From the NCBI GenBank assembly GCA_963762145.1, contig CAVXJS010000021.1, positions 256,001 through 320,000 on the forward strand: 64,000 nt of DNA, written 5' to 3'. The notes beneath the pieces were generated by a model. That model did no database searches and was not told the origin of the DNA. It was given only the letters and a program-made list of their open reading frames with translations. Source of the stretch: an uncultured Candidatus Rokubacteria bacterium. Lineage in GTDB: Bacteria > Methylomirabilota > Methylomirabilia > Rokubacteriales > CSP1-6. Shown here in pieces: positions 20,140-34,207 of the stretch. How positions within the stretch are numbered: the stretch's first letter is position 1; the number at the start of each line of letters is the position of its first letter. The translations under genes were made by a program, and so were the position numbers.

Positions 20140-20922
20140 GTGGGCCTAGCGACGTTCCTTGAGCGCACGTGGAGCGGCATCGCCGGGCTCGTCAAGCCAC
20201 GCTCGGCCTCCTCTCTCTTTCGGCTGGCCGACCAGTATCGCCACGAAGGGCGTTACGAGGACGCGGCCGAGCTGATCACCGAGGGGCTGCGCGTCTCGCC
20301 TAACATCGCGGTCGGTCACCTGCTGGACGCCTACCTTCACGTGGTGTTCCGCGAGATGCCCGCGGCCAAGGCTTCATTCCGGCGCGTCCTCGGGCTCGAT
20401 CCCTACCACCCGCGTGCCCTGTTTGGGCTCGCGCGCATCGCGCTGGAAGAGGGCGACATCGAGGGATGCCGGCCCTTCCTCGACCGGGCGATCCAGTACT
20501 TCCCGGATTTCCCGGAAGCAAAGGCGCTGCAGGAGATGGTGGCCACCTGGACCGCCCCCGCCCCGGGAGCCTCGACGGCGATCGGGGCGATCTCCACCGA
20601 GCGGCTTCGGCTGCCTCCGGGCGCCCAGGACCTCGTGCTGACGCGCGCGGACGGCAAACTCGTGTTCGCGCAGGGGAGCGAGGAGCGGCAGAAGCACCTC
20701 GGGCTGCACATGACGCAGGTCTACCGGATCGCGTCCGCCACGCTGGCCCGGGCCGGGCTCGGCGCGATGCGACGGGGCGTCATCGAGGGCGCTGAGGAGA
20801 CGACCTTTCTCCGCAGCGACGGCGGCGTGATCCTGGGTGTCGCGCTCGCGCGTGAGGTCGAGGTGGGAGCGGGACTGGTGCAGGTCGGACGCTTGTGGAC
20901 GGATCTCAACATCAAGGCCTGA
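20140..20922 (+). CDS. TPR protein with a C-terminal degenerate Roadblock-like domain
   Basis: Three TPR-like helical repeats, then VLTRADGKLV...GVIEG...VILGVAL...VGAGLVQV following the Roadblock secondary-structure pattern. Confidence 0.65.
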   Translation: MGLATFLERTWSGIAGLVKPRSASSLFRLADQYRHEGRYEDAAELITEGLRVSPNIAVGHLLDAYLHVVFREMPAAKASFRRVLGLDPYHPRALFGLARIALEEGDIEGCRPFLDRAIQYFPDFPEAKALQEMVATWTAPAPGASTAIGAISTERLRLPPGAQDLVLTRADGKLVFAQGSEERQKHLGLHMTQVYRIASATLARAGLGAMRRGVIEGAEETTFLRSDGGVILGVALAREVEVGAGLVQVGRLWTDLNIKA

Positions 20923-20926
20923 GCCG

Positions 20927-21361
20927 ATGGCCGACCCGCAGACCACCGCCGATTCGACGCCTCCGGGCGGCACGCCGGCCCCGCGCCCATCGCGGGCGCA
21001 GGCCTTCCGCGAGACTCTGTCCGAGCTGACCCGGCTCGATGGCGTGCGCGGGGGGCTCATCGTGACGCCGGATGGCCTCGTCATCACGTCGGAGCTGCCC
21101 CCCCGCTTCCCGGTGGAGGCGCTCGCCGCGCTCGCGGCCACCCTCGGGCGTGAGCTGGAGCTGGGAGCGAGCCGGCTGGAGCGGGGCGCCTTCCGCACCG
21201 CGCTCTTCTCGGCGGACGACGGGACCGTCTTCGTGGGGGGCAGCCCGGTCGGCTACGTGACCCTCGTCGCGGACCGCAACGTGAACAACGAGGGGGTTCG
21301 CACCGCACTCGGCCGCGCAGTGGATCGCCTGCGCGGCACCTGGCGCACCCCGTCCCCTTAG
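20927..21361 (+). CDS. Roadblock/LC7 (MglB-like) protein
   Basis: LDGVRGGLIVTPDGLVI...LAALAA...YVTLVA. Confidence 0.88.
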   Translation: MADPQTTADSTPPGGTPAPRPSRAQAFRETLSELTRLDGVRGGLIVTPDGLVITSELPPRFPVEALAALAATLGRELELGASRLERGAFRTALFSADDGTVFVGGSPVGYVTLVADRNVNNEGVRTALGRAVDRLRGTWRTPSP

Positions 21362-21460: not shown

Positions 21461-23527
21461 TTATCCCATCGTCACTCGAATCACTTCCTCCACCGTCGTC
21501 ACGCCATCCACCACCTTCTGCAGCGCGTTCTGTCGCAGCGTCTTCATGCCCTGCGAGCAGGCGGTCTCGCGGATCTCGGCGGTGGTCGCGTTGCGCAGCA
21601 TGAGATCCCGGAGCTCGGAGGTGATCGGCATCACCTCGTAGATGGCCACCCGGCCCTTCATGCCCGTGAAGTTGCACGTCTGGCAGCCCTTGCCCTTGTA
21701 GAAATTGACGTTGCCGAGCCCCTGGGACACGTGCCCGTAGGGGACCAGGCTCTCCTCGTTCGCCTCGTAGGGCTCCTTGCAGTCCTTGCAGATCTTCCGT
21801 CCGAGCCGCTGGGCCAGGATCAGCTGGAGCGAGGACGAGACGAGGAAGGGCGGGATACCCATGTCGAGGAGCCGCGCGGGAGTGGACGGGCAGTCGTTGG
21901 TGTGCAGCGTGGAGAGCACGAGGTGGCCGGTGAGGGCGGCGCGGATACCGATCTGGGCCGTCTCCAGGTCTCGGGTCTCGCCGACCAGGATCACGTCCGG
22001 GTCCTGCCGCAGGAAGCTCCGCAGGCACGCCGCGAAGGTGCGGCCGATCTCGTCGTTGACCTGCACCTGGTTGACGCCCTTCAGGTTGTACTCGACCGGG
22101 TCCTCGGCGGTCATGATGTTGATGTCCGGCGAGTTGATGGTGTGGATCGCCGAGTACAGCGTGGTGGTCTTGCCGGAGCCGGTCGGGCCGGTGATCAGGA
22201 TCATGCCGTAGGGGCTGTGGATCGCCTTGCTGAACTGCTCGAGGCTCCACGGGTCGAAGCCGAGAGCCCCCATGTCGAGCTGGAGCGCTTCCTTGTCCAG
22301 GATACGCATGACGGTCTTCTCGCCGAAGATCGTCGGCAGCGTCGAGACCCGGAAGTCGATCTCCCGCTGGTGGTAGCGCAGCTTGATGCGGCCGTCCTGG
22401 GGGAGCCGGCGCTCCGCGATGTCCATCGTGGCCATGATCTTCACGCGCGAGGTCAGGGCCGCCTCGAGGCGCTTGGGCGGCGTCATGATCTCGTGTAGCA
22501 CACCGTCGATGCGGAACCGGACCCGGAAGACCTTCTCGTACGGCTCGAGGTGGATGTCGGAGGCGCCCCGCCGGATGGCGTCGGTCAGGATCATGTTGAT
22601 GAGCCGGACCACCGGCGCCTCGTCGGCCGACTCCTTGAGGTCGAAGACGTCGGCCTTGCTGAAGGCGGCCTCGCCGTCCTCGACGACCTCGACGTCGGTG
22701 TCGGCCTCCTCCAGCTCGCTCATCATGTCGTTGACGCTGGCGCCCGTCTCGTAGAGACGCTCGAAGGCCTTGCGGATCGCCGCCTCGGAGGCGACCACCG
22801 GCTGGATCTGCAGGCCGGTCATGAACCCGACGTCGTCGAGCGCGAAGACGTTGGTGGGATCCGCCATCGCGAGGGTGAGGACGTTCCCGATCCGCTTGAT
22901 CGGGAGCACGCTGTGCTTCTTGGCGATCTGCTCGGGCACGAGCTTGAGCACGTCCGGATCCGGATCCACCTGCGCCACCGTGATCGCGGGCATGGCGTAC
23001 TGCTTCGACAGGAACGAGACGAGGCTGTCCTCGGTGATGAACTGCAGGCGCACCAGGATCGTCCCGAGCTTGTCGGCGCTGCCCTTCTGCTCGGCGAGCG
23101 CGCGCTGGAGCTGCTCCGGGCTGATGAGCTTCTCGGCCACTAGCCGGTCCCCGAGACGCGACAGGCTGCCCTGGCGACGCTCGATCGAGGAGACCCCGCC
23201 CCGCTTGCCCGCCAACGGGGTCGGCGCGACCTCGATGGACGCGGCGAGCGCCTCCATCTCCTCGGTCGCCGGCACCCGACCGGCCGCGGGCTCCGGGGTC
23301 GGCGCCACGCTCGCGGACGGCCGTCCTCCCACCGTACCGGCAAGGCGCGCCACGACCCGGGCCAGGCTCTCCCGATCACCCAGCTTGGTGTAGATCTCCT
23401 TCAGGGTCTCGAGCGCCCCGGTGTCCGACGGGTTGGCCTCCACGATCATCTCGCAGAGTCGGGCCGACTCGGCCAGGGATCGCTTCTCTTCCGAGGACAG
23501 CGAGATCTTGTTGTCGGTCTGCGCCAT
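21461..23527 (-). CDS. pilB: Type IV pilus extension ATPase PilB (GspE/PulE family) with an N-terminal extension
   Basis: ERRLPQDGR, GPTGSGKT, TAEDPVEY, LRQDPDVILVGE, TGHLVLSTLH, CKDC...CQTC Zn site, MshEN-like RLG repeat. Confidence 0.9.
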   Translation of the reverse strand: MAQTDNKISLSSEEKRSLAESARLCEMIVEANPSDTGALETLKEIYTKLGDRESLARVVARLAGTVGGRPSASVAPTPEPAAGRVPATEEMEALAASIEVAPTPLAGKRGGVSSIERRQGSLSRLGDRLVAEKLISPEQLQRALAEQKGSADKLGTILVRLQFITEDSLVSFLSKQYAMPAITVAQVDPDPDVLKLVPEQIAKKHSVLPIKRIGNVLTLAMADPTNVFALDDVGFMTGLQIQPVVASEAAIRKAFERLYETGASVNDMMSELEEADTDVEVVEDGEAAFSKADVFDLKESADEAPVVRLINMILTDAIRRGASDIHLEPYEKVFRVRFRIDGVLHEIMTPPKRLEAALTSRVKIMATMDIAERRLPQDGRIKLRYHQREIDFRVSTLPTIFGEKTVMRILDKEALQLDMGALGFDPWSLEQFSKAIHSPYGMILITGPTGSGKTTTLYSAIHTINSPDINIMTAEDPVEYNLKGVNQVQVNDEIGRTFAACLRSFLRQDPDVILVGETRDLETAQIGIRAALTGHLVLSTLHTNDCPSTPARLLDMGIPPFLVSSSLQLILAQRLGRKICKDCKEPYEANEESLVPYGHVSQGLGNVNFYKGKGCQTCNFTGMKGRVAIYEVMPITSELRDLMLRNATTAEIRETACSQGMKTLRQNALQKVVDGVTTVEEVIRVTMG

Positions 23528-23546: not shown

Positions 23547-24035
23547 CTAGACCGGACGCTCCCGCAGCGAGGACTGCACCTCGTCCTTGTGGAGCGGCGT
23601 CGACAGCACGCCGGTGCGCTGCGGCCGCGTCCGGGTCTCGGCCAGGATGGCCCCGATCGCGGTGCCCGCCTCCTTGGCGAAGAGACGGACCATGCCCACG
23701 GTGGTCCGGCTGTCGAAGATGGCGAGCAGGATCGCGTGCTCGTCCACCGCGGCGACGTGGATGCTCTCCTTGACGCCCTGATGAAACAGCATCGTGAACT
23801 CGGTCTCGCCGAGCAGCCGCGCCATCGCGGCGGTCGAGCTGAACGCGCCCGCGGCGAGCGCGGAGAGCGACACGGTGTCGAGCGACCGTGAAGCGCCTCC
23901 GCGAGCCAGGAGCTGTCCGCTCCGATCGATCAGGAGCGATTCCATCGCTCCCGATTCGCCCAGGAAGTGCAGGAGAACGCCGTTGATCCGCTGCGCGTCA
24001 TCCTCGTGGATGGCCAGGTTGTCATTTAGACTCAT
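23547..24035 (-). CDS. mglB: MglB (Roadblock/LC7), cognate GAP candidate for MglA
   Basis: LLIDRSGQLL, SLSALAAG, EFTMLFHQG..ESIH, IFDSRTTVGMVRL; adjacent to mglA. Confidence 0.9.
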   Translation of the reverse strand: MSLNDNLAIHEDDAQRINGVLLHFLGESGAMESLLIDRSGQLLARGGASRSLDTVSLSALAAGAFSSTAAMARLLGETEFTMLFHQGVKESIHVAAVDEHAILLAIFDSRTTVGMVRLFAKEAGTAIGAILAETRTRPQRTGVLSTPLHKDEVQSSLRERPV

Positions 24036-24639
24036 TGAGCGCCCCCTGTTCTTGTCCGAACCCGGCGACGAGAACCATGCGAGAGACGGTGTTGAGCGTA
24101 TCGAACACGCCCTTGCCCTCGACGGCGACCGATTCGAAGTACGGAACCCGCCGGCTCTTCCGGTTCAGCATGTATTCGAGGTACTCCACCGGAGCCACGT
24201 TGGGCAGGTCCCGCTTGTTGTACTGGATCACGTACGGGATCTCGTCAAGATTGTACCCGTATTCCTTGAGATTCTCTTCGAGGTTTCTGAAGCTCTCCAC
24301 GTTCTCGGGCAGGCGATCCCACTGCGAGTCCGCGACGAAGACGATGCCGTCGACGCCCCGCAGCACCAGCTTGCGCGTCATGTTGTAGTAAATCTGGCCC
24401 GGCACCGTGTAGAGCTGGAACTTGGCCACGAAGTTCCGCACCGTCACCGCGGAGACCGGCAGGAAGTCGAAGAAGAGCGTCCGATCGTCTCCCGTCGCGA
24501 GCGACACCATGTTGCCGCGGTTGACGTCCGGGAGGCCGCGGTAGATGTACTGGAGGTTGGCGGTCTTCCCGGCCACCCCGGTGCCGTAGTAGACGATCTT
24601 GAAGCTGATCTCTTTTTGCGCGTAGTTGATGATCGACAT
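24022..24639 (-). CDS. mglA: MglA Ras-like small GTPase
   Basis: KIVYYGTGVAGKT (G1), DRTLFFDFLP (G2 with Arg), TVPGQ (G3), NKRD (G4), GVFDTL. Confidence 0.95.
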   Translation of the reverse strand: MSIINYAQKEISFKIVYYGTGVAGKTANLQYIYRGLPDVNRGNMVSLATGDDRTLFFDFLPVSAVTVRNFVAKFQLYTVPGQIYYNMTRKLVLRGVDGIVFVADSQWDRLPENVESFRNLEENLKEYGYNLDEIPYVIQYNKRDLPNVAPVEYLEYMLNRKSRRVPYFESVAVEGKGVFDTLNTVSRMVLVAGFGQEQGALNESK

Positions 24640-24648
24640 CGAGTCGCC

Positions 24649-27624
24649 TCAGGCCGACATCAGCGTCGCCGCTGCGCGCTCGACCTGGCGGTAGGCCAGG
24701 CCGGGCCGGGTGACGGATCCACCCGCGACGATGACGATCGACCGCCCGTGCCCGATCTCTTCGGGCTGGATGACGAGGAGCGTGTCGCCGGATCGCAGGA
24801 TCGCGGTCCGGAACACGGCGCCTGACCCCGCCGCCTTGCGCATCACGGCGTGGAGGTCCTGCGCGAACGCTCCCACCGCAGGCACGTCGTCTCCCGCCGG
24901 CAGGAAGAAGTAGAGGACCGCTTCGCTTTCCGCGTCTCTCAGCACCGACGCGGTGACGTCACCGAACGCGGTCAGCCCTCCCGTGAGGACCGCCGCCCGA
25001 CTCGGCACCGCGGCCGTCGCCAGGCTGGAGCTGGCCGCCGGAACCACGTCCTGACCGGGGCCCGCGGTACGCGCGCCGCGGTCGGCTGCGGCGCGCCGGC
25101 AGAGGATCTCGAGCAGCGCGAGCGTGCCGCCGCGAGGCGCCGCGGCCGCGAGAACCGGTCCCCGGTCGGCCGGACCGCCGAGCGGCGTCAGCACGACGGC
25201 CGTCTCCGGCCCGCGCAGGGTGATCTGATCGACCGGCCAGGACGGACGGCGATCCGTGAACAGCGGCAGGGCGAGGCCCGCCACCGCGACCGCGGTTTCA
25301 TGGGCGACCGTCGGCGCGGCCATCGCAAAGACGGTGACGCCCTCGACCGCCTGGACGCTCACGTCGAAGGACGCGATCGGCGCCAGCAGCGCGACGATAC
25401 GTCGGGCCTCCGCCGCCTCCGCGGCCCCGGGAACGAGCGCGGCGGGAGTCGGGGCGGCCGGCGCCGGCTCGGCCCAGGCGGCGACGGCGGCCCGGGCGGG
25501 AGAAGGCTTGGGCCAGGCGAACGCGGGCGGGGCTGGCGGCACCGAGGGCGGTGCGACCACCGGGGTCGGAACGGTCACGTGCGGCTCCGGCTGCGCGAGC
25601 ACTGGCCGCGTCTCGAGATCGCGGGGGCGGTCCAGCTCGACCCTCGCGACGACCGGAAGCTCCTCCGGCCGCTCCTCGATCGGATCCGGCACCGGATCGA
25701 TGCGGGGCGCATCGGCCATGACGGGCTCAGGTTCCGGGAGCGACGCGATGGCGGGTTCTGGCTCCAGCACGGTCTCCCGCGGCGACTCCTCGGCAGCGAC
25801 CGGCTGCGGCTCGGGCTCGGGGGCGGCCGCCGCTTCAACCGACGCCTCGGGCGCCGGATCCGACACGAGCGGCTGAAAGGGCGCCGGGAAGGACTCGATG
25901 CCGCGGACGTCGACGGCCGGGCCGGCGGCGGCCAAGAACAGGTCCAGCGGGACCTGCCGGACGACCTCGTCGAGCGGGAGGCGCAGGCCGTTCGGCAGAC
26001 GCTCGGTCATCTCCGCGTCCGAGACGGCCATCGCCTCCTGGGGGAATTGCGGCGCGATCACGTCCCAGCCGATGCGAATCAAGCCCTCCGCGAGCTGAGG
26101 CAGCACGAGCGACTGCGGGATCAGCAGCGCCCCGGGCTGCCGCATCCGCTCGGCCACCTCGTCGAGCGGAACGCGGAACGCTTCCACGGGAAGCTCGGCC
26201 GCCACGCGACTCCACGAGATACGCACGATGGGCTCGTCGGTGCCAGGCGCGGCGGCGGCCGAGAGCTCGAGCGCGGCCGGCTCGGGCTTCCTCACCGGCT
26301 CCGGCGTGACCGTCATCGCCGGCTCGATCGGCCGGGGCGCGGCGAGGGGCCGGATCGCCACGGGCTCGGCCGGCTCCGCCGGCTGTGACGCCGACGGCAC
26401 CGCGAGCGGGATCGGAGCGGGGGCGCGCGGCGCCTCCGGCGGCGGCGTCGGCCTGACCGCCGGGGCCGGTGCGATCTCGGGCTCCGGCTGCCTCACTGCC
26501 GCAGCCTCGGTCGGTGCCTGGGACTCGTCCATCGGGTGGAACGGCACCGGGATCCGGTGGAGCCCGTGGATCTCGACCTCGGGGGTATCCGCGACGAACA
26601 GCTCCTGTGGCAGCTGGCGGATCACCTCGTCGATGGGGAGCCTCAAGCCTTCGTCCAGGTGCTCGGCGATCTCGGCCTTGCTCAATCCCACCAGGTGGGC
26701 CGGGAACTGATCGGCGATATCGCTCCACGCGACCCGTGCCATCCCCTCCGATAGCTGGGTGACCACGAGCTCGCCGGAGATCCGGAGGAACCCGGGCTCG
26801 GCGAGGCTTGCCGCCACCTCGTCCTCCGGCGCGAGAAAAGTGCCGGGAGGGAGCTGGTCCATGACGCGGTCGAGCGCGATGCGCAGCACGACTTCCGATC
26901 GGCCGGGCACGCGGGCCGGCTCGGCGTCGCGCCGGCGCTTTGCCGCCGCGGCGCGGCGCCGACGGGGCTCCTCGTCCGGTGCCGGAACGGGCGCAGGCGG
27001 TGGGGGCGGCGCCACCGGGGGGACAGGAGCTGACATCACGCCGGGCTCGGGAGCCGGCTCGGCTCGCGAGAGCAGCGCGTCGCTCAGGGAGCCGCTCCCC
27101 TCGAGCGCAGGCGCGCTCGGCACGCGAGTGGGTGTGGCAGACCGGGCCCGACTCACCGACGAGCGCGCGGTCGAGGCACCCCGCTCGCGGGGAAGACGGG
27201 CGGGCGCGTGCAGCAGGTCACGGAGCGGCACCAGGAGCAGCATCACGCCGAGGAGCTCCGGCAAGGGCGGCGGCAGCATCCAGGGCAGGGCGCGGCCCGC
27301 GAGCGCCGGATCGAGCAACGCGCTGAGCGGCTCTCGGGACATGCTCAGCAAGACGTGGAGTCCGCTCAGGAGCGCGGTGCCCACGAGCCATCGCACGATG
27401 GATGGACGGCGAACCCAGAGCCAGACCAGCAAGCCGTACACCACCGGCGGAATGCTCGCGACCGCCCACTTCGGCAACGGCACCTCGAACTGGAGAGGGA
27501 CGAGGGTCAGGAGGTAGATGACGCCGACATACGCGGCGAGGCCCAGCACCGCCATGAGCCAGGACGAGAGCCGCTGGGCGCTGGACACGAAATGATGGGA
27601 CGTTCTCATGGAGGAAGGCCTCAC
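24649..27624 (-). CDS. Unknown 991-aa membrane-anchored protein: N-terminal TM helices, two ~120-aa repeat domains, Pro/Ala linkers, C-terminal tandem Roadblock-like domains
   Basis: Hydrophobic N-terminus, visible internal duplication, position within the gene string with an overlapping start. Confidence 0.75.
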   Translation of the reverse strand: MRPSSMRTSHHFVSSAQRLSSWLMAVLGLAAYVGVIYLLTLVPLQFEVPLPKWAVASIPPVVYGLLVWLWVRRPSIVRWLVGTALLSGLHVLLSMSREPLSALLDPALAGRALPWMLPPPLPELLGVMLLLVPLRDLLHAPARLPRERGASTARSSVSRARSATPTRVPSAPALEGSGSLSDALLSRAEPAPEPGVMSAPVPPVAPPPPPAPVPAPDEEPRRRRAAAAKRRRDAEPARVPGRSEVVLRIALDRVMDQLPPGTFLAPEDEVAASLAEPGFLRISGELVVTQLSEGMARVAWSDIADQFPAHLVGLSKAEIAEHLDEGLRLPIDEVIRQLPQELFVADTPEVEIHGLHRIPVPFHPMDESQAPTEAAAVRQPEPEIAPAPAVRPTPPPEAPRAPAPIPLAVPSASQPAEPAEPVAIRPLAAPRPIEPAMTVTPEPVRKPEPAALELSAAAAPGTDEPIVRISWSRVAAELPVEAFRVPLDEVAERMRQPGALLIPQSLVLPQLAEGLIRIGWDVIAPQFPQEAMAVSDAEMTERLPNGLRLPLDEVVRQVPLDLFLAAAGPAVDVRGIESFPAPFQPLVSDPAPEASVEAAAAPEPEPQPVAAEESPRETVLEPEPAIASLPEPEPVMADAPRIDPVPDPIEERPEELPVVARVELDRPRDLETRPVLAQPEPHVTVPTPVVAPPSVPPAPPAFAWPKPSPARAAVAAWAEPAPAAPTPAALVPGAAEAAEARRIVALLAPIASFDVSVQAVEGVTVFAMAAPTVAHETAVAVAGLALPLFTDRRPSWPVDQITLRGPETAVVLTPLGGPADRGPVLAAAAPRGGTLALLEILCRRAAADRGARTAGPGQDVVPAASSSLATAAVPSRAAVLTGGLTAFGDVTASVLRDAESEAVLYFFLPAGDDVPAVGAFAQDLHAVMRKAAGSGAVFRTAILRSGDTLLVIQPEEIGHGRSIVIVAGGSVTRPGLAYRQVERAAATLMSA

Positions 27625-28505
27625 ACGGCCCGGACCAGGTCCGGGAGCGCTTTCTTCACGTGGTATCGCACCTTGCCGAGCACCGCCGAATCGCCAAGCA
27701 CCACCGCGAGCATCGCGCCCGCGCCCACGGCATTCAGCAGCACGACACCCGCGTCGTATTCGAGGATCAAGCTCTGGAGGCGCCCCTGGGTCAGGGCCCG
27801 TCCCACTCCGTCGGTCACTTCGACCAGACAGGCGGCGAGGGCGCCCGCGAGCTCGGCTTCGGGAAGGAGCCCACCCGCGACCTCCATCAGGGCTCCCTCG
27901 CGGTCGATCAGCGCGGTCAGGGAGACCCCGGCCAGCTCGGCCACCCCGGCGAGCAGCGCCTTGAGGTCGGGAGTCGGTGCCGCCGCGGCGACCGCAACCG
28001 GCTCCGCGACCGGCGCCGGCGGCTCGGGCTGAGGCACGCGGCGTTCGGGGGCCGTGACCGGCGCGGCGACCGGAGCGGCGGAAGCCGCCGGGACCACCGC
28101 GCGGGCCGGCGGGGACGCGACCGCGGGCGCGGGCCGCCCCGCGGCCGGCAACAGGCTCTCGATGCGATGCAGGAGCTCGTCGGCCGCGAAGGGCTTTCGC
28201 ATCACGTCGTCCGACCGCACCTTGGCCGCACGCTCCATCACGGTGCTGTTGACGATGCCCGAGATCAGCAGCACCGGCGTGTGTCCGAGAGTCGGGTGCT
28301 TCTTGACGAAGTCACAGATCTGGTAGCCGTCCATGTCCGGCATGATCACGTCACAGACGATGAGATCGGGCGTCTCGCGCGCGATCTGCTCCATCGCCTC
28401 GGTGCCCGAGGCGGCCGACAGCACCTCGATGCGCTTCGACTCCAGGGCCCGCTGCACGACCTTCCGGACGCTGAGACTGTCGTCTACGACCAGTACCTTG
28501 GGCAT
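27621..28505 (-). CDS. Response regulator receiver fused to a Roadblock/LC7 domain
   Basis: VLVVDD...LIVCD..MP.MDG...ISG...KPF; Pro/Ala linker; AGVSLTALIDREGAL...LILEY...LGKVRY. Confidence 0.88.
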   Translation of the reverse strand: MPKVLVVDDSLSVRKVVQRALESKRIEVLSAASGTEAMEQIARETPDLIVCDVIMPDMDGYQICDFVKKHPTLGHTPVLLISGIVNSTVMERAAKVRSDDVMRKPFAADELLHRIESLLPAAGRPAPAVASPPARAVVPAASAAPVAAPVTAPERRVPQPEPPAPVAEPVAVAAAAPTPDLKALLAGVAELAGVSLTALIDREGALMEVAGGLLPEAELAGALAACLVEVTDGVGRALTQGRLQSLILEYDAGVVLLNAVGAGAMLAVVLGDSAVLGKVRYHVKKALPDLVRAV

Positions 28506-28508
28506 GAT

Positions 28509-29402
28509 CTATCCGTCCCGCCTCGGTCCACGAGCGGCCGCGGCCTCGCGGCGCCCGTCGGCGCTCTGGGTTCCCTCGTCGATCGCTTGCGCCACGCTCA
28601 AGAGGAGCTGCTCCACGCTGCGCGAGATGGTGCGCGGTCGTCCCGCCAGGCTCTCGCGCTCGGCGCGGTTGAAGCAGAAGCGCGCCTCGCCTTCCCGCTG
28701 GGAGGCGCCTACCATCGCGGCGAAGGCGGGCTCGCCCGTCTTCCCGGAGAAGTCGGCGTGGATGACCCGACCGGCCTCGAAGAGGATGCTCCCCTCGCCG
28801 CCCGACAGCGAGAGCAGCAGCTCGCCGGTCTTGACTCCGAGCGAGATGACCTGGGTGAGCTCGGTCAGGTCCATCACGCCGAGCGAGCCCTGGAAGCTGC
28901 TGCGCCCCGGCTCGGCCGCGGCCCTTGCGGCCGGCGCCGCGACGGCGGGAGCGGCCGGGGGCCGCGGCGGCATCTTCGCGGGCCCCTTGGCCGCCACCGG
29001 CGGCTCCGGGCGGCGCACGGGGGCGACGGGGGGCTCCTCTCCGAGCAGCTCCTTGATGCGCGCCATCACGGTGGCCAGGGTGAAGTCGCCGGTGACCGTC
29101 ATGTCCACGCCGGCCTCGGTGGCGGCCAGCGCGATGGGCCGATCGCGACCGGCCAGGAGCAGGAACGGCGTGTCCTTCGTCGCCGGATCGCGCCGCACCA
29201 TCGTGAACAGCTCATAGCCGTCCATGTCCTGCACCTTGGCGTAGCTCACGATCAGGTCGGGCTGCTCCCATTCGAGCATGGTCAGCGCGAACGAGCCGCT
29301 CGTCGCGACCGCCGCTTCGTATCCGGCTTCCGCGAGAGCGTGGGCCAGCGCGACCCGGCTGTCCTGGTTGGCATCCACCACGAGCACCTTGGCGTCGGCC
29401 AT
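28509..29402 (-). CDS. Pseudo-receiver plus DUF4388 (PATAN-like) domain protein
   Basis: REC fold without the phosphoacceptor (LIVSY); C-terminal FQGSLGVMDLTELTQVISLGVKTGEL...GRVIHA...LLL. Confidence 0.82.
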   Translation of the reverse strand: MADAKVLVVDANQDSRVALAHALAEAGYEAAVATSGSFALTMLEWEQPDLIVSYAKVQDMDGYELFTMVRRDPATKDTPFLLLAGRDRPIALAATEAGVDMTVTGDFTLATVMARIKELLGEEPPVAPVRRPEPPVAAKGPAKMPPRPPAAPAVAAPAARAAAEPGRSSFQGSLGVMDLTELTQVISLGVKTGELLLSLSGGEGSILFEAGRVIHADFSGKTGEPAFAAMVGASQREGEARFCFNRAERESLAGRPRTISRSVEQLLLSVAQAIDEGTQSADGRREAAAARGPRRDG

Positions 29403-29405
29403 CGC

Positions 29406-32336
29406 CTACTCCACCAGGCTCCCGCCGTGGGCGGAGCCGGCGACTTCGAGTGCCCGCTCCCCCGAGACGATCGATTCGACGATCCGCACGAAACTCTGCT
29501 CGTCCACCGGCTTCGTGACGTAGTGGCGCACGCCCAGGCGCCGGGCCAGGTCGACGTGCTTCGCGCCGGCGCGCGTCGTCATCACGATCACCGGAACCTC
29601 GCGGGTCGCCGGCCGCCGCCGCAGGTCCTCGATCAGGCCGTACCCGTTGAGCCGCGGCATCTCGAGATCGGTGACGACCACGTCCACGTTCCGCTCCACG
29701 AGCTGCGCGAGCGCGTCCTGGCCGTCGATCGCGGTGACGACCTGGAAGCCGGCCTTCTCCAGCATCTGACCGACGAACTTCCGGATGCTCACCGAATCGT
29801 CCACCAGCATGACGGTGGGCCGACGCTCCGCGGGGTCGAGCGGAGCCGGCTCGCGCACCGGGGCGGCTGGATGCCGCGTCGCCGCCTCGCGCAGAAGGGT
29901 CGGGTCGAGGAGCAGGATCACGCGGCCTTCGCCCGAGATCGTGGCGCCCGAGAACGGACCCACCCCCTCGACCAGCGCGCCCAGGCTCTTGATGACGATC
30001 TCTTCCTTGCCCAGGAGCTCGTCCACCACCACGCCGAAGGGCTTGCCACCACCCCGCATCACCACCACCGGCAGACGCGAGGGCGGCGGAGACGGGACCA
30101 GACCCAGCGCCCGATCGAGGCGGACGAGCTCGATCGTCCGGTCGTCGAGCGACACGGTCTCCCGCCCGCCCGCGACCTGGATCTCGCGCGGCGCGACCGA
30201 CCGCATCGCGCTCACCCCGGTGAGCGGGAACGCCACCGTCTCCGGCCCGCACCGCACCATCAGCGCGTCCGCGATCGCCATCGTGACGGGCAGCTTCAGG
30301 ACGAAGCGCGTCATGCGCCCGGCCTCCGTCTCGACGTGGATCTCTCCGTTGAGCCGGCTGACGTTGGTGCGCACGACGTCGAGGCCGACTCCGCGACCGG
30401 CGGTCTGGGTCACCGAGGACGCGGTGCTGAAGCCCGCCACGAAGATGAGGTTCAGGATCTCGCCCTCGGGCAGCGTGGCCGCCTCGGCCGGGGGCAGGAA
30501 CCCGCGCTCCACCGCGTGCCGCCGCAGCACCTCGGTATCGATCCCGCGCCCGTCGTCCTCCACCACCACCAGGATGAAGCTGCCCTCCTGGGACGCGGAC
30601 AGAGTCACGTGGCCGGCCGCCGCCTTGCCGCGGCTCTCGCGCTCCGGGGCCGGCTCGATGCCGTGCGCCACCGCGTTCTGGATCAGGTGCAGCAACGGGT
30701 CGGCGATCTGCTCGATGATCCCGTTGTCCACCTCCACCGACTCCCCGCGCACCGTGAGGCTCACCGACTTGCCGGTGGCCCGGGCCGTCTCCCGCACCTG
30801 CTGGGCCACCCGCGCGAAGAGCCGGCCGATGGGCACCATGCGCGCGCGCGTGATCTCCTTGCGGAGGGCCGCGGTCAGCCGCTGGATCTGCACCGTGTCT
30901 TCCCGGATGTTGCGCAGGAGGGTCGCGTGCTGGCTCTGCACCTCGGCCACGTCCGCGGACATCTCGGTCACGCTGCGGGCCAGGATATTGATGTCGTCGT
31001 AGCGGTCGAACTCGAGCTCGGCGAAGAGATCGGAGATGTCGCGCAGCTTCCCTGCCGCGTCGCGCTCGGCGCCGCGGCCGTCGCGGGGCATCGTGGGCGC
31101 CTGCTGGCGGAACTCGAAGTCGCGGCCGACCTGGCCGAGGCGCGTGCGGCTGGCGAGGAGCAGATCGCTCACCTGGTCGAGCTGGGCCAGCCGCCGGTCG
31201 AGGCGGCTCCGCGCGATCATCAGCTCCCCCACCAGGTTCATGAGCGTGTCCAGCCGCTCCACCGGCACCCGGATGCTGGGCCCGGAGGTCGCCGCGCTCG
31301 AGGCGCGGAGGGCCGGCCGCGGCAGAGCCTCGAGCCGGGCCAGGAACTCGGGGCGCACGAACGGCGGCAGCTCCAGCGAGGGCGTCCGCGCGAGATCCGG
31401 CGCCTCGGGGGCGACGACCGGATCGGGAGCCTCGACCGCGGGCGGAATGGCCGGGCGCTCGGGCAGGCTCTCCGAGGCCGCCAGGAGGCGCAGGTCGCGC
31501 GTCGCGCGCTCGAGCGCCTCCGCCGCCTCCTCGGACACCGCGGCCCCGGACTGGAGCACCCGCTTGATGGCCGCGGCTCCCGAGAAGATCGCCTCGGTCA
31601 CCGCCGGTGTGGCGGGAAGCCGCTGCTCGCGCAGTACGCCGAGAAGATCCTCGATGTAGTGCGTGGCGTCGCCGAGCGGGGCGCATCCGACCGTGTACGC
31701 CGCGCCCTTGAGCGTGTGAGCGGCCCGGAAAACGGTCGCCAGCGTGTCCTCGTCGCGCGCGCCGCCCTCGATGGCGAGCAGGGCGGTGGTCATCGACTCC
31801 AGGTGCTCGGCGGCCTCGGGCACGAAGTACTCGAGAACCTCGCCGCCCTCGGCGAAGAACCGCCGCAGGTCGGCGAGCAGCGGTGAGATCGGAGCCGGCG
31901 GCAGGGCGATCGCGGGCTCCGGGTCGGGCGCGGCGGCCGGCGAGGCGAAGAACGCGGGATGACGGGACTTGAAGTCCGCGATACGGGCCGAGTCCTCGTT
32001 CCCGACTGCGCTGATGCCGTCGAAGACCTCCTTCAGGAGGTCGACGAGGCCTTCCAGGAAGACGGCCGATCCGACCCGCTCGTCGGCCGACGCGGTCGGG
32101 GCCCGCTCGAGCAGGCGCTCGGTGCCCGCGGCGAGCTCCGAGACGCCGGGGAACCCGTGAAGGGCGGCCGAGCCCTTCAGACGGTGCGCGAAGACGACGA
32201 GTGTCGCGAGAGCCTCCGCGGTCGGATTCTCCGGAGCGGTGAGCAGGCCGAGCTCGTCCTCGATGGCCCCGGCGGTATCCCAGGCCTCCATCAGGAAGAT
32301 GCCCAGCAGCAGCTCGCGCTCGCGACGATCGGCCAT
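29406..32336 (-). CDS. cheA: Hybrid chemosensory histidine kinase (CheA/ChpA-like): 2 HPt, HATPase, CheW, REC
   Basis: AHRLKG and AHTLKG HPt motifs; IRVPVERLD.LMNLVGEL; NAVAHG, DDGRG, GFST, GRGVGLDVV; C-terminal DD...TDLEMP...KP. Confidence 0.95.
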   Translation of the reverse strand: MADRRERELLLGIFLMEAWDTAGAIEDELGLLTAPENPTAEALATLVVFAHRLKGSAALHGFPGVSELAAGTERLLERAPTASADERVGSAVFLEGLVDLLKEVFDGISAVGNEDSARIADFKSRHPAFFASPAAAPDPEPAIALPPAPISPLLADLRRFFAEGGEVLEYFVPEAAEHLESMTTALLAIEGGARDEDTLATVFRAAHTLKGAAYTVGCAPLGDATHYIEDLLGVLREQRLPATPAVTEAIFSGAAAIKRVLQSGAAVSEEAAEALERATRDLRLLAASESLPERPAIPPAVEAPDPVVAPEAPDLARTPSLELPPFVRPEFLARLEALPRPALRASSAATSGPSIRVPVERLDTLMNLVGELMIARSRLDRRLAQLDQVSDLLLASRTRLGQVGRDFEFRQQAPTMPRDGRGAERDAAGKLRDISDLFAELEFDRYDDINILARSVTEMSADVAEVQSQHATLLRNIREDTVQIQRLTAALRKEITRARMVPIGRLFARVAQQVRETARATGKSVSLTVRGESVEVDNGIIEQIADPLLHLIQNAVAHGIEPAPERESRGKAAAGHVTLSASQEGSFILVVVEDDGRGIDTEVLRRHAVERGFLPPAEAATLPEGEILNLIFVAGFSTASSVTQTAGRGVGLDVVRTNVSRLNGEIHVETEAGRMTRFVLKLPVTMAIADALMVRCGPETVAFPLTGVSAMRSVAPREIQVAGGRETVSLDDRTIELVRLDRALGLVPSPPPSRLPVVVMRGGGKPFGVVVDELLGKEEIVIKSLGALVEGVGPFSGATISGEGRVILLLDPTLLREAATRHPAAPVREPAPLDPAERRPTVMLVDDSVSIRKFVGQMLEKAGFQVVTAIDGQDALAQLVERNVDVVVTDLEMPRLNGYGLIEDLRRRPATREVPVIVMTTRAGAKHVDLARRLGVRHYVTKPVDEQSFVRIVESIVSGERALEVAGSAHGGSLVE

Positions 32337-32340
32337 CGGG

Positions 32341-34207
32341 TCAGCTCGCCAGCTTGAAGCGGGATAGCTTGGCGGTCAGCTCTTCCGCCAGGTGGGCCAG
32401 CTGCTCGACGTTCTTCCGGCTCTGCTGCACGCCCTGCTCGGCCTTCACCGCCGCGCCCGCAATCGCCTGCACCGCCCCCGCGGCGGCCTCGGCGCCCCGG
32501 ACCTGCGTCTGCGAGGCGTGGGAGATCTCGGCCGCGAGCTCGGCGGACGTCTGCGAGATCTTCCCGATCTCCTGGAGGGCCTCCTCCGCCTTGAGACTCA
32601 CCTCGTACCCGGACTCGACCTCCCGGGTGCCGGCCTCCATCGCCACCACCGCCTCCTGGGTCTCCACCTGCACGCCCTTGATGAGCGTGCCGATGTCCCG
32701 GGTGGCCTGGGTGGCCCGCTCGGCCAGCTTGCGCACCTCGTCGGCCACGACCGAGAACCGCAGCCCCGCCTCGCCCGCACCCGCCGCTTCGATCGAAGCG
32801 TTCAGGGCGAGCAGGTGCGTCTGGGCCGCGATGTCCTGGATGGTGTTCACGATATTCGAGATCTCGAGCGAGCGGTCGCCGAGGGACTTGATCTTCTTGG
32901 AGATCGTCTGCACCTCGGCCCGGATCTGCTGCATGCTCGCCAGGCTGTTGCGTACCGCTCCCTCGCCCTTGCTCGCGGCCTGGAGCACCTGGCGTGCCGC
33001 CTTCGCGCTCTGGTCGGCACTGTCCGCGACCTGGCGCACCGAGACCGTCACGTCCGCCACCGAGCGGGTCACGCTCACCGCGTCGCGGGTCTGGGCCTGC
33101 GCCGCCTCCGCGAGCTCGCCGGTGATGCGGATGGTGTCCTGCGAGCCCGAGGCCACGCGGAGGGCGGCCTGCCGCACGTCGCCGACGACCGAGGAGATCT
33201 CCTCGACCATCAGGTTGATCGCGTCCACCACGTTGCCGAGCACGTCCCAGCTCACCTCGCCGCGCCGGGTGAGGTCGCCCTTGCCGATCTCCACCACCGT
33301 GTCGAGGAACGTGATGATGTTCTGCTGCAGGTCCTCGCGCTTGCGGCGCTCCTCGTCGCGGTCGGTCTCGGTCTGGACCAGCGAGCGGAGCCGCACGATG
33401 GACTCGTTGAAGGTGACCGCCATCTGACCGATCTCGTCGCGCGACGTGACCGGCACCAGCTGGGAGAGGTCGCCCCGGCCCACGCGCTCGGCCACGCTCA
33501 CGAGGGCATTGACCGGACGCGTGATGCGCTGGGCGAAGATCACGCCCGCGAGCACCGCGACCGCCGCGATCCCCCCCAGCACCAGGAGCAGGAAGTTGCC
33601 GGCCCCGACCGCCGCGGTGCGGATGATCGACTTGTCCATGCCCACCCGCACGGTCCCGAGGCGGCCGCCCAGCATGGGCACGCCAATGTCGATGATCTCG
33701 CGCTCGCTCCCGCCGCGGGGATCGGAGATAGGTGAGCTCCTGGACCTGCGGCCGGGAGGCCTGCCCCGGCACCACGTTCTTCTCGATGATGCCCTTGGGC
33801 ACCACCGGGGCGAAGGTGTGGGCCACGAGTGCGCGCTGGGGATCGTAGACCATGACGTAGGCCACGCCGGAGATCTTGGCGAACTCGTCCACCTGGGCCT
33901 GCACGGTGGATGCGTCACGATTGACCACGAGGTCCGCCGCGGAGCTCGACAGGCTGTTGGCGATGGCGCTGCCCTTGTCGGTGAACTCGCGGGTGAGATT
34001 CTCCTGCAGCGACCGATAGGCGATGGTCCAGCTCGCGATCGCCACCGGCAGCAGGACCAGCACGAGGAAGATGGTGATCTTGCCCAGCAGGCCGAACCGC
34101 GCCCGGGAGACCGGAACGGGTGCGGCCTCGACGGGGGATCCCTCCGCGCCCTTCCTCGACCCGTGCCTTCTCCAGCCTCGCTTCAAGCCGTCCATGCCCA
34201 TGTTCAT
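32341..34207 (-). CDS. Methyl-accepting chemotaxis protein (PilJ-like), with one frameshift near 33727
   Basis: TM-periplasmic domain in one frame; TM-HAMP (SRDEIGQMA..FN) and QTHLLALNASIEAA...FSVVADEVRKLAE in another; removing 1 nt joins ELTY to SDPRGG. Confidence 0.9.

Follow-up and report, generated by a model that had tools for sequence, protein, structure and literature searches.

An MglA/type IV pilus polarity operon of Rokubacteria contains a new, conserved membrane-anchored protein with a predicted Roadblock-type pair

To our knowledge, almost all that is understood of the control of cell polarity by MglA and MglB comes from Myxococcus, in which the connections of chemosensory signalling, GTPase and pilus motor are scattered over the genome and are still debated. 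Here we describe a gene, referred to as X, that lies immediately upstream of mglA in an operon of an uncultured Candidatus Rokubacteria bacterium (phylum Methylomirabilota). The DNA analyzed, called the window throughout, is a stretch of 64,000 nucleotides (nt) from contig CAVXJS010000021.1 of assembly GCA_963762145.1 (positions 256,001 to 320,000 of the forward strand), and X occupies its positions 24649..27609 on the minus strand. Its product consists of a transmembrane anchor, copies of a repeat domain (D) carried on a Pro/Ala/Glu-rich chain, and two Roadblock-type folds (C1 and C2) at the end. As a part of this MglA/type IV pilus polarity operon X is new and conserved, and we infer its function from the comparisons given below.

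The described systems closest to X are best compared one at a time. MglB is a soluble homodimer of ~160 amino acids (aa) that is recognised by the Pfam family Robl_LC7. Both its gene and X adjoin mglA, and C1 and C2 share its alpha-beta-beta-alpha-beta-beta-beta-alpha fold (C1 matches Thermus MglB, PDB 3t1r_A, at Z 7.3 and Myxococcus MglB, 6hjm_A, at Z 6.9). Unlike MglB, X unites two diverged copies in a single chain with a membrane anchor and further domains, and shows no detectable sequence similarity to it; the true MglB of the locus is encoded two genes downstream. MglC (7cy1_A, Z 6.8) also has the Roadblock fold and is a plausible model for X. In Myxococcus it is described as a Roadblock protein that is no GTPase-activating protein (GAP) and works via other polarity proteins (PMC7949163, PMC4719450). 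Unlike X, MglC is small, soluble and homodimeric, and no sequence relation between the two was detected. The best structural neighbour of X is MP1-p14 (LAMTOR3-LAMTOR2 of the Ragulator; PDB 2zl1, 3cpt) at Z 8.1, a membrane-held Roadblock heterodimer that scaffolds small GTPases. In its logic it comes nearest to a Roadblock pair tethered to the membrane next to MglA, but MP1-p14 is eukaryotic, is made of two chains, is tethered via a lipidated partner and not by helices of its own, and lacks D, and the likeness is one of fold and concept only.

Two further systems, SgmX and the polar hubs of the FimV/HubP type, would be functional analogues of X in that they link the type IV pilus motor with a polarity cue. 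A membrane anchor and long acidic or Pro-rich linkers characterise FimV and HubP, but X lacks the hallmarks of such hubs, namely a periplasmic LysM domain, a single transmembrane helix and a cytoplasmic C-terminal TPR/FimV domain: it has 0 Pfam matches to LysM, TPR or the FimV domain, and four transmembrane helices with short outer loops. SgmX is reported to act with MglA and to stimulate pilus formation (PMC7519303, PMC7668184). Twitching-motility and chemotaxis genes have been noted in Rokubacteria, without detail in the source (Becraft et al. 2017, PMC5712423). We found no description in the literature of a single-chain or tandem Roadblock pair in bacteria.

The minus-strand frame 24649-27624 is open over 991 codons when counted from a GTG at 27624, and a preliminary description of this DNA had accordingly proposed a 991-aa membrane protein. 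This GTG overlaps the stop codon of the upstream gene. An ATG at 27609, five codons inside the GTG frame, gives the MRTS start found in 18/18 aligned homologues, and a GAGG lies 9-12 nt upstream of it. Because of the conserved start and the GAGG, X probably has 986 aa rather than 991, so that the open frame and the membrane anchor of that proposal hold and its length probably does not. Codon composition matches the neighbouring genes (GC3 0.88, GC2 lowest), and a collection of 5.8 billion proteins contains 180 homologues of near-equal length at E<=1e-3, all unnamed or "hypothetical", with Methylomirabilota or Rokuibacteriota as the only organism names attached to them. X is a real gene. In an alignment of 18 sequences (A1), the anchor, both D copies (D1 and D2) and the C-terminal region are conserved, and the linkers vary in length and sequence.

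The end of the chain is where X comes closest to known proteins. We modelled the last 259 residues with AlphaFold2 from an alignment of 25 rows (A4) reaching down to 30% identity, which gave a predicted local distance difference test score (pLDDT) of 88 (~90 in C1) and a predicted template modelling score (pTM) of 0.87. Read by DSSP, the model has the element order alpha-beta-beta-alpha-beta-beta-beta-alpha twice, at residues 2-118 and 143-257, connected by a disordered 13-residue loop; this is the order of the Roadblock/LC7 family (Pfam PF03259). C1 (25072..25428, minus; model residues 1-124) had MP1-p14 2zl1_B as its best VIA-align neighbour, with 112 of 116 residues aligned. The MglB and MglC chains named above, an Asgard Roadblock protein (9jq8_B, Z 7.1), MP1 (3cpt_A, Z 6.8) and a Thorarchaeal Roadblock protein (7f8m_A, Z 6.6) complete the top seven rows. 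All seven are Roadblock proteins, and the 102-120 residues aligned make up almost the entire target chain. C2 (24652..25023, minus; model residues 139-259) likewise matched three Roadblock entries: 7yh1_D at Z 6.3 with 111 of 116 residues aligned, 9jue_D at Z 6.1 and 3kye_A at Z 5.8. A feature search of the ESM Atlas with C2 put a Robl_LC7-bearing cluster first at 0.90; 30% of its members carry the family, and we treat it as a lead only.

The Roadblock match in VIA-align is consistent and nearly full-length and not strong, amounting to support at the level of fold and not to proof of homology. On these models we conclude that both C units have the Roadblock fold, in agreement with the two Roadblock-like alpha/beta segments that had been read from the sequence. 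Sequence comparison does not reveal this fold: in hhalign, C1 against C2 gives P 0.019 in register, and a C unit against the MglB/response regulator-Roadblock profiles of the locus gives P 0.047 in the best case (in register, 74 columns). Common descent of the C units and MglB is likely. The pTM of 0.87 for the two-unit model indicates a fixed mutual arrangement of the halves, suggesting that C1 and C2 could pack as a pseudo-dimer. Searches of NCBIfam with X, including the MglB equivalog NF052242, gave 0 matches, and mglB downstream matches that entry at 1.3e-22. A complex prediction for the C-terminal pair with MglA scored 0.00 in two runs made without folded controls, and weighs neither way. 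Foldseek with the C model against PDB returned HPPD-type rows only (TM score 0.11-0.16, root mean square deviation ~19 A), which we treated as meaningless; these and a weak FosA3 row mentioned below probably reflect 3Di similarity of repeated beta-alpha-beta modules.

Between the anchor and this pair lie two homologous domains, D1 (26527..26904, minus) and D2 (25861..26241, minus), which had been described as units of ~120 aa. They are ~125 aa long, correspond to residues ~241-366 and ~462-588 in the 991-aa numbering and are 45% identical over 144 aa (BLASTP, E 4e-41), and the coordinates first given for them were correct within a few codons. The four-fold motif claimed for each domain is also there: the halves of D align to each other with an hhalign probability of 98.4% (E 4e-15, 47 columns, 142 near-full-length instances), and pairing the four ~20-residue units in all six ways gives scores of 14.7-34.7, compared with means of 6.4-8.0 and maxima of 11.0-14.1 in column-shuffled controls. 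The weakest pair, b-c at 14.7, is marginal against these controls. In rough form the motif reads h-R-h-x-h-x-x-h-h-x-Q-h-P, and in the AlphaFold2 model each copy forms a short strand and then a helix. Mean pLDDT of this model is 78.5 and its pTM 0.65, with residues ~6-104 at 82-93 and the last 22 residues below 50.

These last residues contain the P-x-PF-x-P ending that the preliminary description had pointed out. In an alignment of 28 rows (A2), made of both D copies from the window and 13 related loci, the G, P, P, F and P of a G-x(4)-P-x-P-F-x-P peptide are invariant in 28/28, and the peptide is predicted to be disordered; it lies at 26533..26565 behind D1 and at 25870..25902 behind D2 (both minus), where the same alignment shows it conserved. 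The hPxPF stretch looks like a conserved linear docking peptide behind every D copy. No conserved residues of D stand out as catalytic. Because D occurs in 1-7 copies per protein, has been duplicated in a lineage-specific manner, has no catalytic-looking residues and carries a conserved disordered peptide with each copy, it appears to behave as a modular binding unit.

The domain had been called unrecognised, and this description stands. No Pfam or NCBIfam family matches D, with no recurrent matches in 28/28 members, and 0/38 D-containing proteins have any Pfam match at E<=1e-3. The best hit of a profile search against PDB sequences had E 0.51, and the best Foldseek hit of the model against PDB had E 2 and a TM score of 0.16. 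In VIA-align, none of 48,161 representative chains reached Z>=2, nor did any of 66 on a second look. This makes D an outlier, since a model that finds no match in Foldseek will as a rule still attain Z 7-8. D could therefore be a new or open fold, or its model could be missing a partner; the absence of a structural match does not prove a new fold. An AbrB-like swapped-hairpin or double-psi barrel was considered for the D units and found unsupported, with no match from VIA-align. The ESM Atlas returned only unnamed Verrucomicrobiota clusters for D at 0.79-0.86, under the informative level. The search for structural neighbours that had been proposed for each domain thus yielded Roadblock neighbours for the C units by VIA-align and no PDB neighbour for D.

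The anchor covers 27223..27561 (minus), where four transmembrane helices are predicted. Hydrophobic peaks lie near residues 26, 58, 83 and 119-127 (986-aa numbering), in keeping with the roughly four N-terminal segments reported within what are the first 130 residues. The topology comes from a simple Kyte-Doolittle script and the positive-inside rule rather than a dedicated predictor. Lys plus Arg number 2 at the N-terminus, 3 in loop 2 and 8 in the stretch after the fourth helix, and the remaining two loops have a net charge of 0 and lengths of 9 and 23 residues. Because of these counts and the positive-inside rule, we predict an N-in/C-in topology in which everything after the fourth helix is cytoplasmic. 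The charge distribution and the four-helix anchor agree with the earlier proposal of a membrane-anchored protein. Among the long blocks of the 18-sequence alignment, the membrane domain is the one best conserved, and many of its Pro, Trp and Gly are invariant.

Beyond the anchor, the chain continues through a basic Pro/Ala-rich linker to D1, a 95-residue linker to D2 and a 144-residue linker to the 259-residue C-terminal region. The first of the numbered linkers is 27% Pro, 25% Ala and 12% Glu, the second is of similar make-up, and the overall range of 22-27% Pro and 20-25% Ala bears out the long Pro/Ala/Glu linkers that had been reported. Just before D1 (~26905-26970, minus; residues ~220-240) there is a basic patch, an Arg run with Ala and Lys, that is conserved in the two-D subgroup; several of its Arg are invariant among the 18 sequences.

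X is set in an operon on the minus strand that is headed by a methyl-accepting chemotaxis protein (MCP; 32341..33918; MCPsignal 2.6e-34, HAMP 1.2e-15). This is followed by a CheA-CheW-receiver hybrid kinase (29406..32336; matches to Hpt, H-kinase_dim, HATPase_c, CheW and Response_reg), a response regulator-DUF4388 fusion (28509..29402; family match), a response regulator-Roadblock fusion directly upstream of X (27621..28505; Response_reg 3.3e-25, Robl_LC7 1.8e-7) and X itself. Downstream lie mglA, encoding the Ras-like GTPase (24022..24639; 97-100% identical in same-genus loci), mglB, a homologue of the Roadblock GAP (23547..24035; Robl_LC7 1e-13, and the NCBIfam MglB match cited above, which is below the curated cut-off), and a pilB-type gene for a type IV pilus ATPase with an MshEN domain (21461..23527; T2SSE 4.9e-145, MshEN 1.9e-24). 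Spacing is tight: the ATG of X is 12 nt past the upstream stop, mglA starts 9 nt past the stop of X, directly downstream as had been noted, and mglA and mglB overlap.

Convergent on pilB on the plus strand are a TPR gene (20140-20922) and, adjoining it, a small stand-alone Roadblock/LC7 gene (~20927-21361, about 144 aa from an internal Met). This pair accompanies the operon in 11/11 close loci that reach that far and in 6/10 distant loci, and the small protein could be the module's third Roadblock protein, comparable to MglC. In the 260-aa TPR protein, the ~110 C-terminal residues past the TPR matches look by eye like a strand-strand-helix-strand alpha/beta unit, possibly one more Roadblock-like domain. 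The locus of the window encodes at least five Roadblock domains. The two domains of the response regulator-Roadblock fusion are joined by an Ala/Pro linker, and the protein is an unusual output regulator for a CheA. The chemosensory set (29406-33918, minus) is minimal, with one HAMP-bearing MCP and a CheA that has two Hpt, CheW and receiver domains; no separate cheW, cheB or cheR was found among the open reading frames scanned near the operon. We take DUF4388 of the other regulator to correspond to PATAN, so that comparison with PATAN response regulators and the cyanobacterial Tax systems concerns this neighbour and not X. PATAN regulators of chemotaxis-like systems are reported to contact the pilus motor (bioRxiv 10.1101/2021.06.11.447907). 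In their survey of MglA, Wuichet and Sogaard-Andersen (2014, PMC4316618) describe variable gene neighbourhoods with occasional PATAN genes for groups 1, 4 and 5, and note mglA and mglB genes near PATAN genes; we found no mention there of the operon type described here, which may be listed in its supplementary table S2.

The order of genes from MCP, CheA and the DUF4388 and Roadblock regulators through X to MglA, MglB and, where present, PilB is kept in 16/16 contig loci taken at one genome per species, as far as the contigs reach, and in 10/10 further genomes from other genera and one other family. In these ten distant loci MglA is 73-89% identical and the C region of X only 31-52%. PilB usually follows MglB, and is absent from that position in 2/10 (L043, L044) with X-MglA-MglB intact. 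D2 is the copy nearer to the single-D relatives: the D copies of the distant loci are closer to D2 than to D1 in 8/10 (45-56% vs 36-46%) and about equally close in the other two (L038, L045). Five operon contigs (L001, L003, L004, L006, L007) come from metagenome-assembled genomes labelled Acidoferrum, Deferrimicrobiaceae, Nitrosotalea, Limnocylindria and Dormiibacterota; the operon is typically Rokubacterial, and the labels probably result from mis-binning or mislabelling.

Within the phylum Methylomirabilota, D was found in 86/251 genomes and always in a single gene per genome, X being the only one in the genome of the window. With that genome excluded, the counts by family are 84/158 in one family, 1/20 in another and 0 elsewhere. 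MglA occurs at E<=1e-40 in 122/251, and the type at least 68% identical to that of the window adjoins D on the same contigs. Fourteen of the 30 genera itemised have both D and this MglA type, and 16 have neither, a co-occurrence that is descriptive only since related genera are not independent. The tallies include genomes flagged as unpublished (G217 with D and MglA, G044 and G034 with MglA), whose omission shifts the counts by 1-3 and changes no conclusion. Other families of the phylum have a plain mglB-mglA pair, with MglA 51-57% identical, and none of the other operon genes (5/5 loci, L048-L052). Because these loci have the pair without the Che, X and PilB genes, the phylum holds two distinct MglA arrangements. 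In a tree of D copies, the two copies of one genus (g8) pair together with support of 99/93 and those of another (g21) with 94/88, showing that D copy number changed by separate duplications.

Beyond the phylum, a profile of D found 231 clusters (50% identity) at E<=1e-3 and 171 at E<=1e-10 among 1.84 billion representatives. The layout of this family is a transmembrane region, 1 to 7 D and a Roadblock-like tail. Considering 149 of the 150 best-scoring of the 231 clusters, one representative each, the numbers of proteins with 1, 2, 3, 4 and 7 copies of D were 114, 18, 13, 3 and 1. Among single-D proteins of at least 600 aa, 66/70 also match the C profile; no protein with three or more D does so at E<=1e-3 (0/17), and several multi-D tails match the C2 profile alone (P0146 at E 2e-9 and P0206 at E 9e-8, for example). 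The multi-D proteins are compositionally different from X of the phylum. The only named multi-D member is labelled Verrucomicrobia (1/3 matches), and the lead from the ESM Atlas points the same way. Matches to Peptidase_U4 (SpoIIGA) in the membrane region of four multi-D proteins, at E 0.05-0.85, were taken as hydrophobic noise. A metagenome protein, P0137, begins as an X-like call, continues with the N-terminal sequence of MglA and ends in garbled text; it probably comes from an assembly with a frameshift and not from a natural X-MglA fusion.

From a four-sequence alignment (A6) we obtained four metagenome loci with multi-D proteins, two of which (L054, L055) are long enough to read and are MSHA-like pilus clusters. 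The genes before X encode a radical-SAM protein, a protein with AAA_22 and peptidoglycan-binding domains (ExeA/MshM-like) and the product of an unknown gene. Those after it encode a TPR protein (in one locus), an MshEN-only protein, PilB, PilC and a PilS-like kinase, with PilB 0.2-1.9 kb past X. The TPR gene beside the Rokubacterial operon and the multi-D one show generic TPR similarity only (27% over 106 aa). Type IV pilus genes, not MglA, are the neighbours common to both lineages. The linkage to mglA that had been suggested as a check with a repeat-based hidden Markov model thus holds within the phylum, genus by genus, and fails in the two readable multi-D loci, which are pilus clusters without a nearby MglA.

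We put at about one half the probability that X, tethered to the membrane and facing the cytoplasm, is the hub of a polarity module of chemosensory proteins, MglA and type IV pili, with its partners assigned by analogy. Since X always lies between the chemosensory regulators and the genes for the MglA/MglB switch and the pilus motor, it probably belongs, as a new element, to the machinery that decides in which direction the cell crawls. In this hub, the four-helix anchor would hold a long, flexible Pro/Ala/Glu-rich chain at the inner membrane, bearing one or more D modules, each with its hPxPF docking peptide, and the single-chain Roadblock pair at its end. By analogy with MglB, MglC and the MP1-p14 pair of the lysosome, this pair could serve as a platform engaging MglA and/or the Roadblock proteins of the locus (MglB, the response regulator-Roadblock fusion and the small Roadblock protein). 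The D modules would recruit a component that is also common to the pilus clusters of the distant relatives, most obviously a PilB-type motor or its bound partner. Phosphate transfer from the CheA hybrid to both response regulators might then alter the assembly on the tether, and with it where or whether pili extend. With a Roadblock fold encoded beside mglA, X may bind MglA, and docking of the pilus motor by D is a weaker suggestion than this. The polar membrane scaffold presenting a Roadblock pseudo-dimer to MglA, as first proposed, is partly supported: the analysis shows architecture, folds, gene order, co-occurrence with mglA and the range of the family, and from these we infer the cytoplasmic topology, all binding partners including MglA, the polar localisation and the direction in which regulation runs.

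Several observations weigh against such a hub. In VIA-align, IclR and GAF-like effector domains come close behind the Roadblock rows (Z 6.6-5), and Z 6-8 is a range common for unrelated arrangements, with a single chain at Z>=8. X has 0 Pfam matches at E<=0.1, its two C-terminal halves have none at E<=10, and neither do 25/25 C-terminal homologues. Compared with the MglB and response regulator-Roadblock profiles of the locus, the C units gave hhalign P 0.047-0.74, whereas those two profiles as a control match each other with 88% probability. A profile search of the C region against PDB sequences gave nothing relevant, only the FosA3 row at E 0.37. The D model, built on 28 sequences, has no structural neighbour and could be wrong or incomplete. 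The locus already has a canonical MglB, so that a second MglA-binding Roadblock platform is not required, and MglB plus at least two further Roadblock proteins of the locus could be the partners instead. Finally, MglA and MglB are absent within 8 kb of the multi-D X in 2/2 readable loci, though they may lie elsewhere in those genomes. Because of these pilus-cluster relatives, MglA cannot be the universal partner of the family, and mainly because pilus genes and not MglA are common to both lineages, we do not accept a reading in which X serves MglA only.

The alternative that survives best, although we consider it unlikely, is that the Roadblock pair of X associates with other Roadblock proteins and not with the GTPase. 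With at least five Roadblock domains encoded in the locus there is no shortage of candidates, and PilB-type pilus genes are the only functional neighbours common to both lineages examined: PilB comes after MglB in most Rokubacterial loci, and just past X in L054 and L055, there without MglA and MglB. Against this, X tracks this mglA type exactly at genus level within the phylum, PilB is missing after MglB in L043 and L044 where X-MglA-MglB is intact, and only two multi-D loci are long enough to judge. A bolder extension of the hub, speculative and somewhat more doubtful, would have D as a new fold of four strand-helix units that forms, together with hPxPF, a dedicated docking module for the PilB/MshE-type motor or its partners, and X as a tether coupling GTPase state, through its single-chain Roadblock platform as a bacterial counterpart of the Ragulator, to the pilus extension ATPase.

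It is improbable that X is an enzymatic regulator of MglA, that is a GAP co-factor bound to the membrane, or an exchange factor, acting alongside MglB or in its place in the manner of RomY or RomR/RomX. X shares Roadblock folds with the GAP MglB and lies immediately and tightly upstream of mglA, and bipartite GAP complexes that contain Roadblock proteins are reported from Myxococcus (PMC9481161). However, X has no sequence similarity to MglB, a canonical MglB is present, X evolves much faster than MglA across the same ten loci, and its D modules and long linkers resemble a tether and not an enzyme. That X is instead a sensor, whose four-helix domain perceives a membrane or envelope cue, relays it to the cytoplasmic domains and feeds into the Che/MglA module rather than forming its output, is very improbable despite the strong conservation of that domain, as the periplasmic loops are short, X has no known sensor domain in Pfam and an MCP already heads the operon.

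Returning to the membrane-tethered hub, its interest lies in how the parts are arranged. In an uncultured soil phylum, one tightly spaced operon contains a complete chain of receptor, CheA, a pair of output regulators, MglA, MglB and PilB, and X, an extra membrane-anchored component between regulators and GTPase, is a compact and testable candidate for the missing physical link. It brings with it D, a domain family that Pfam does not contain and whose model has no neighbour among solved structures, and it is a first candidate for a single-chain Roadblock pair in bacteria. If it is true that X couples the state of the GTPase to the pilus ATPase, it would be doing a job that is done in Myxococcus by the unrelated SgmX.

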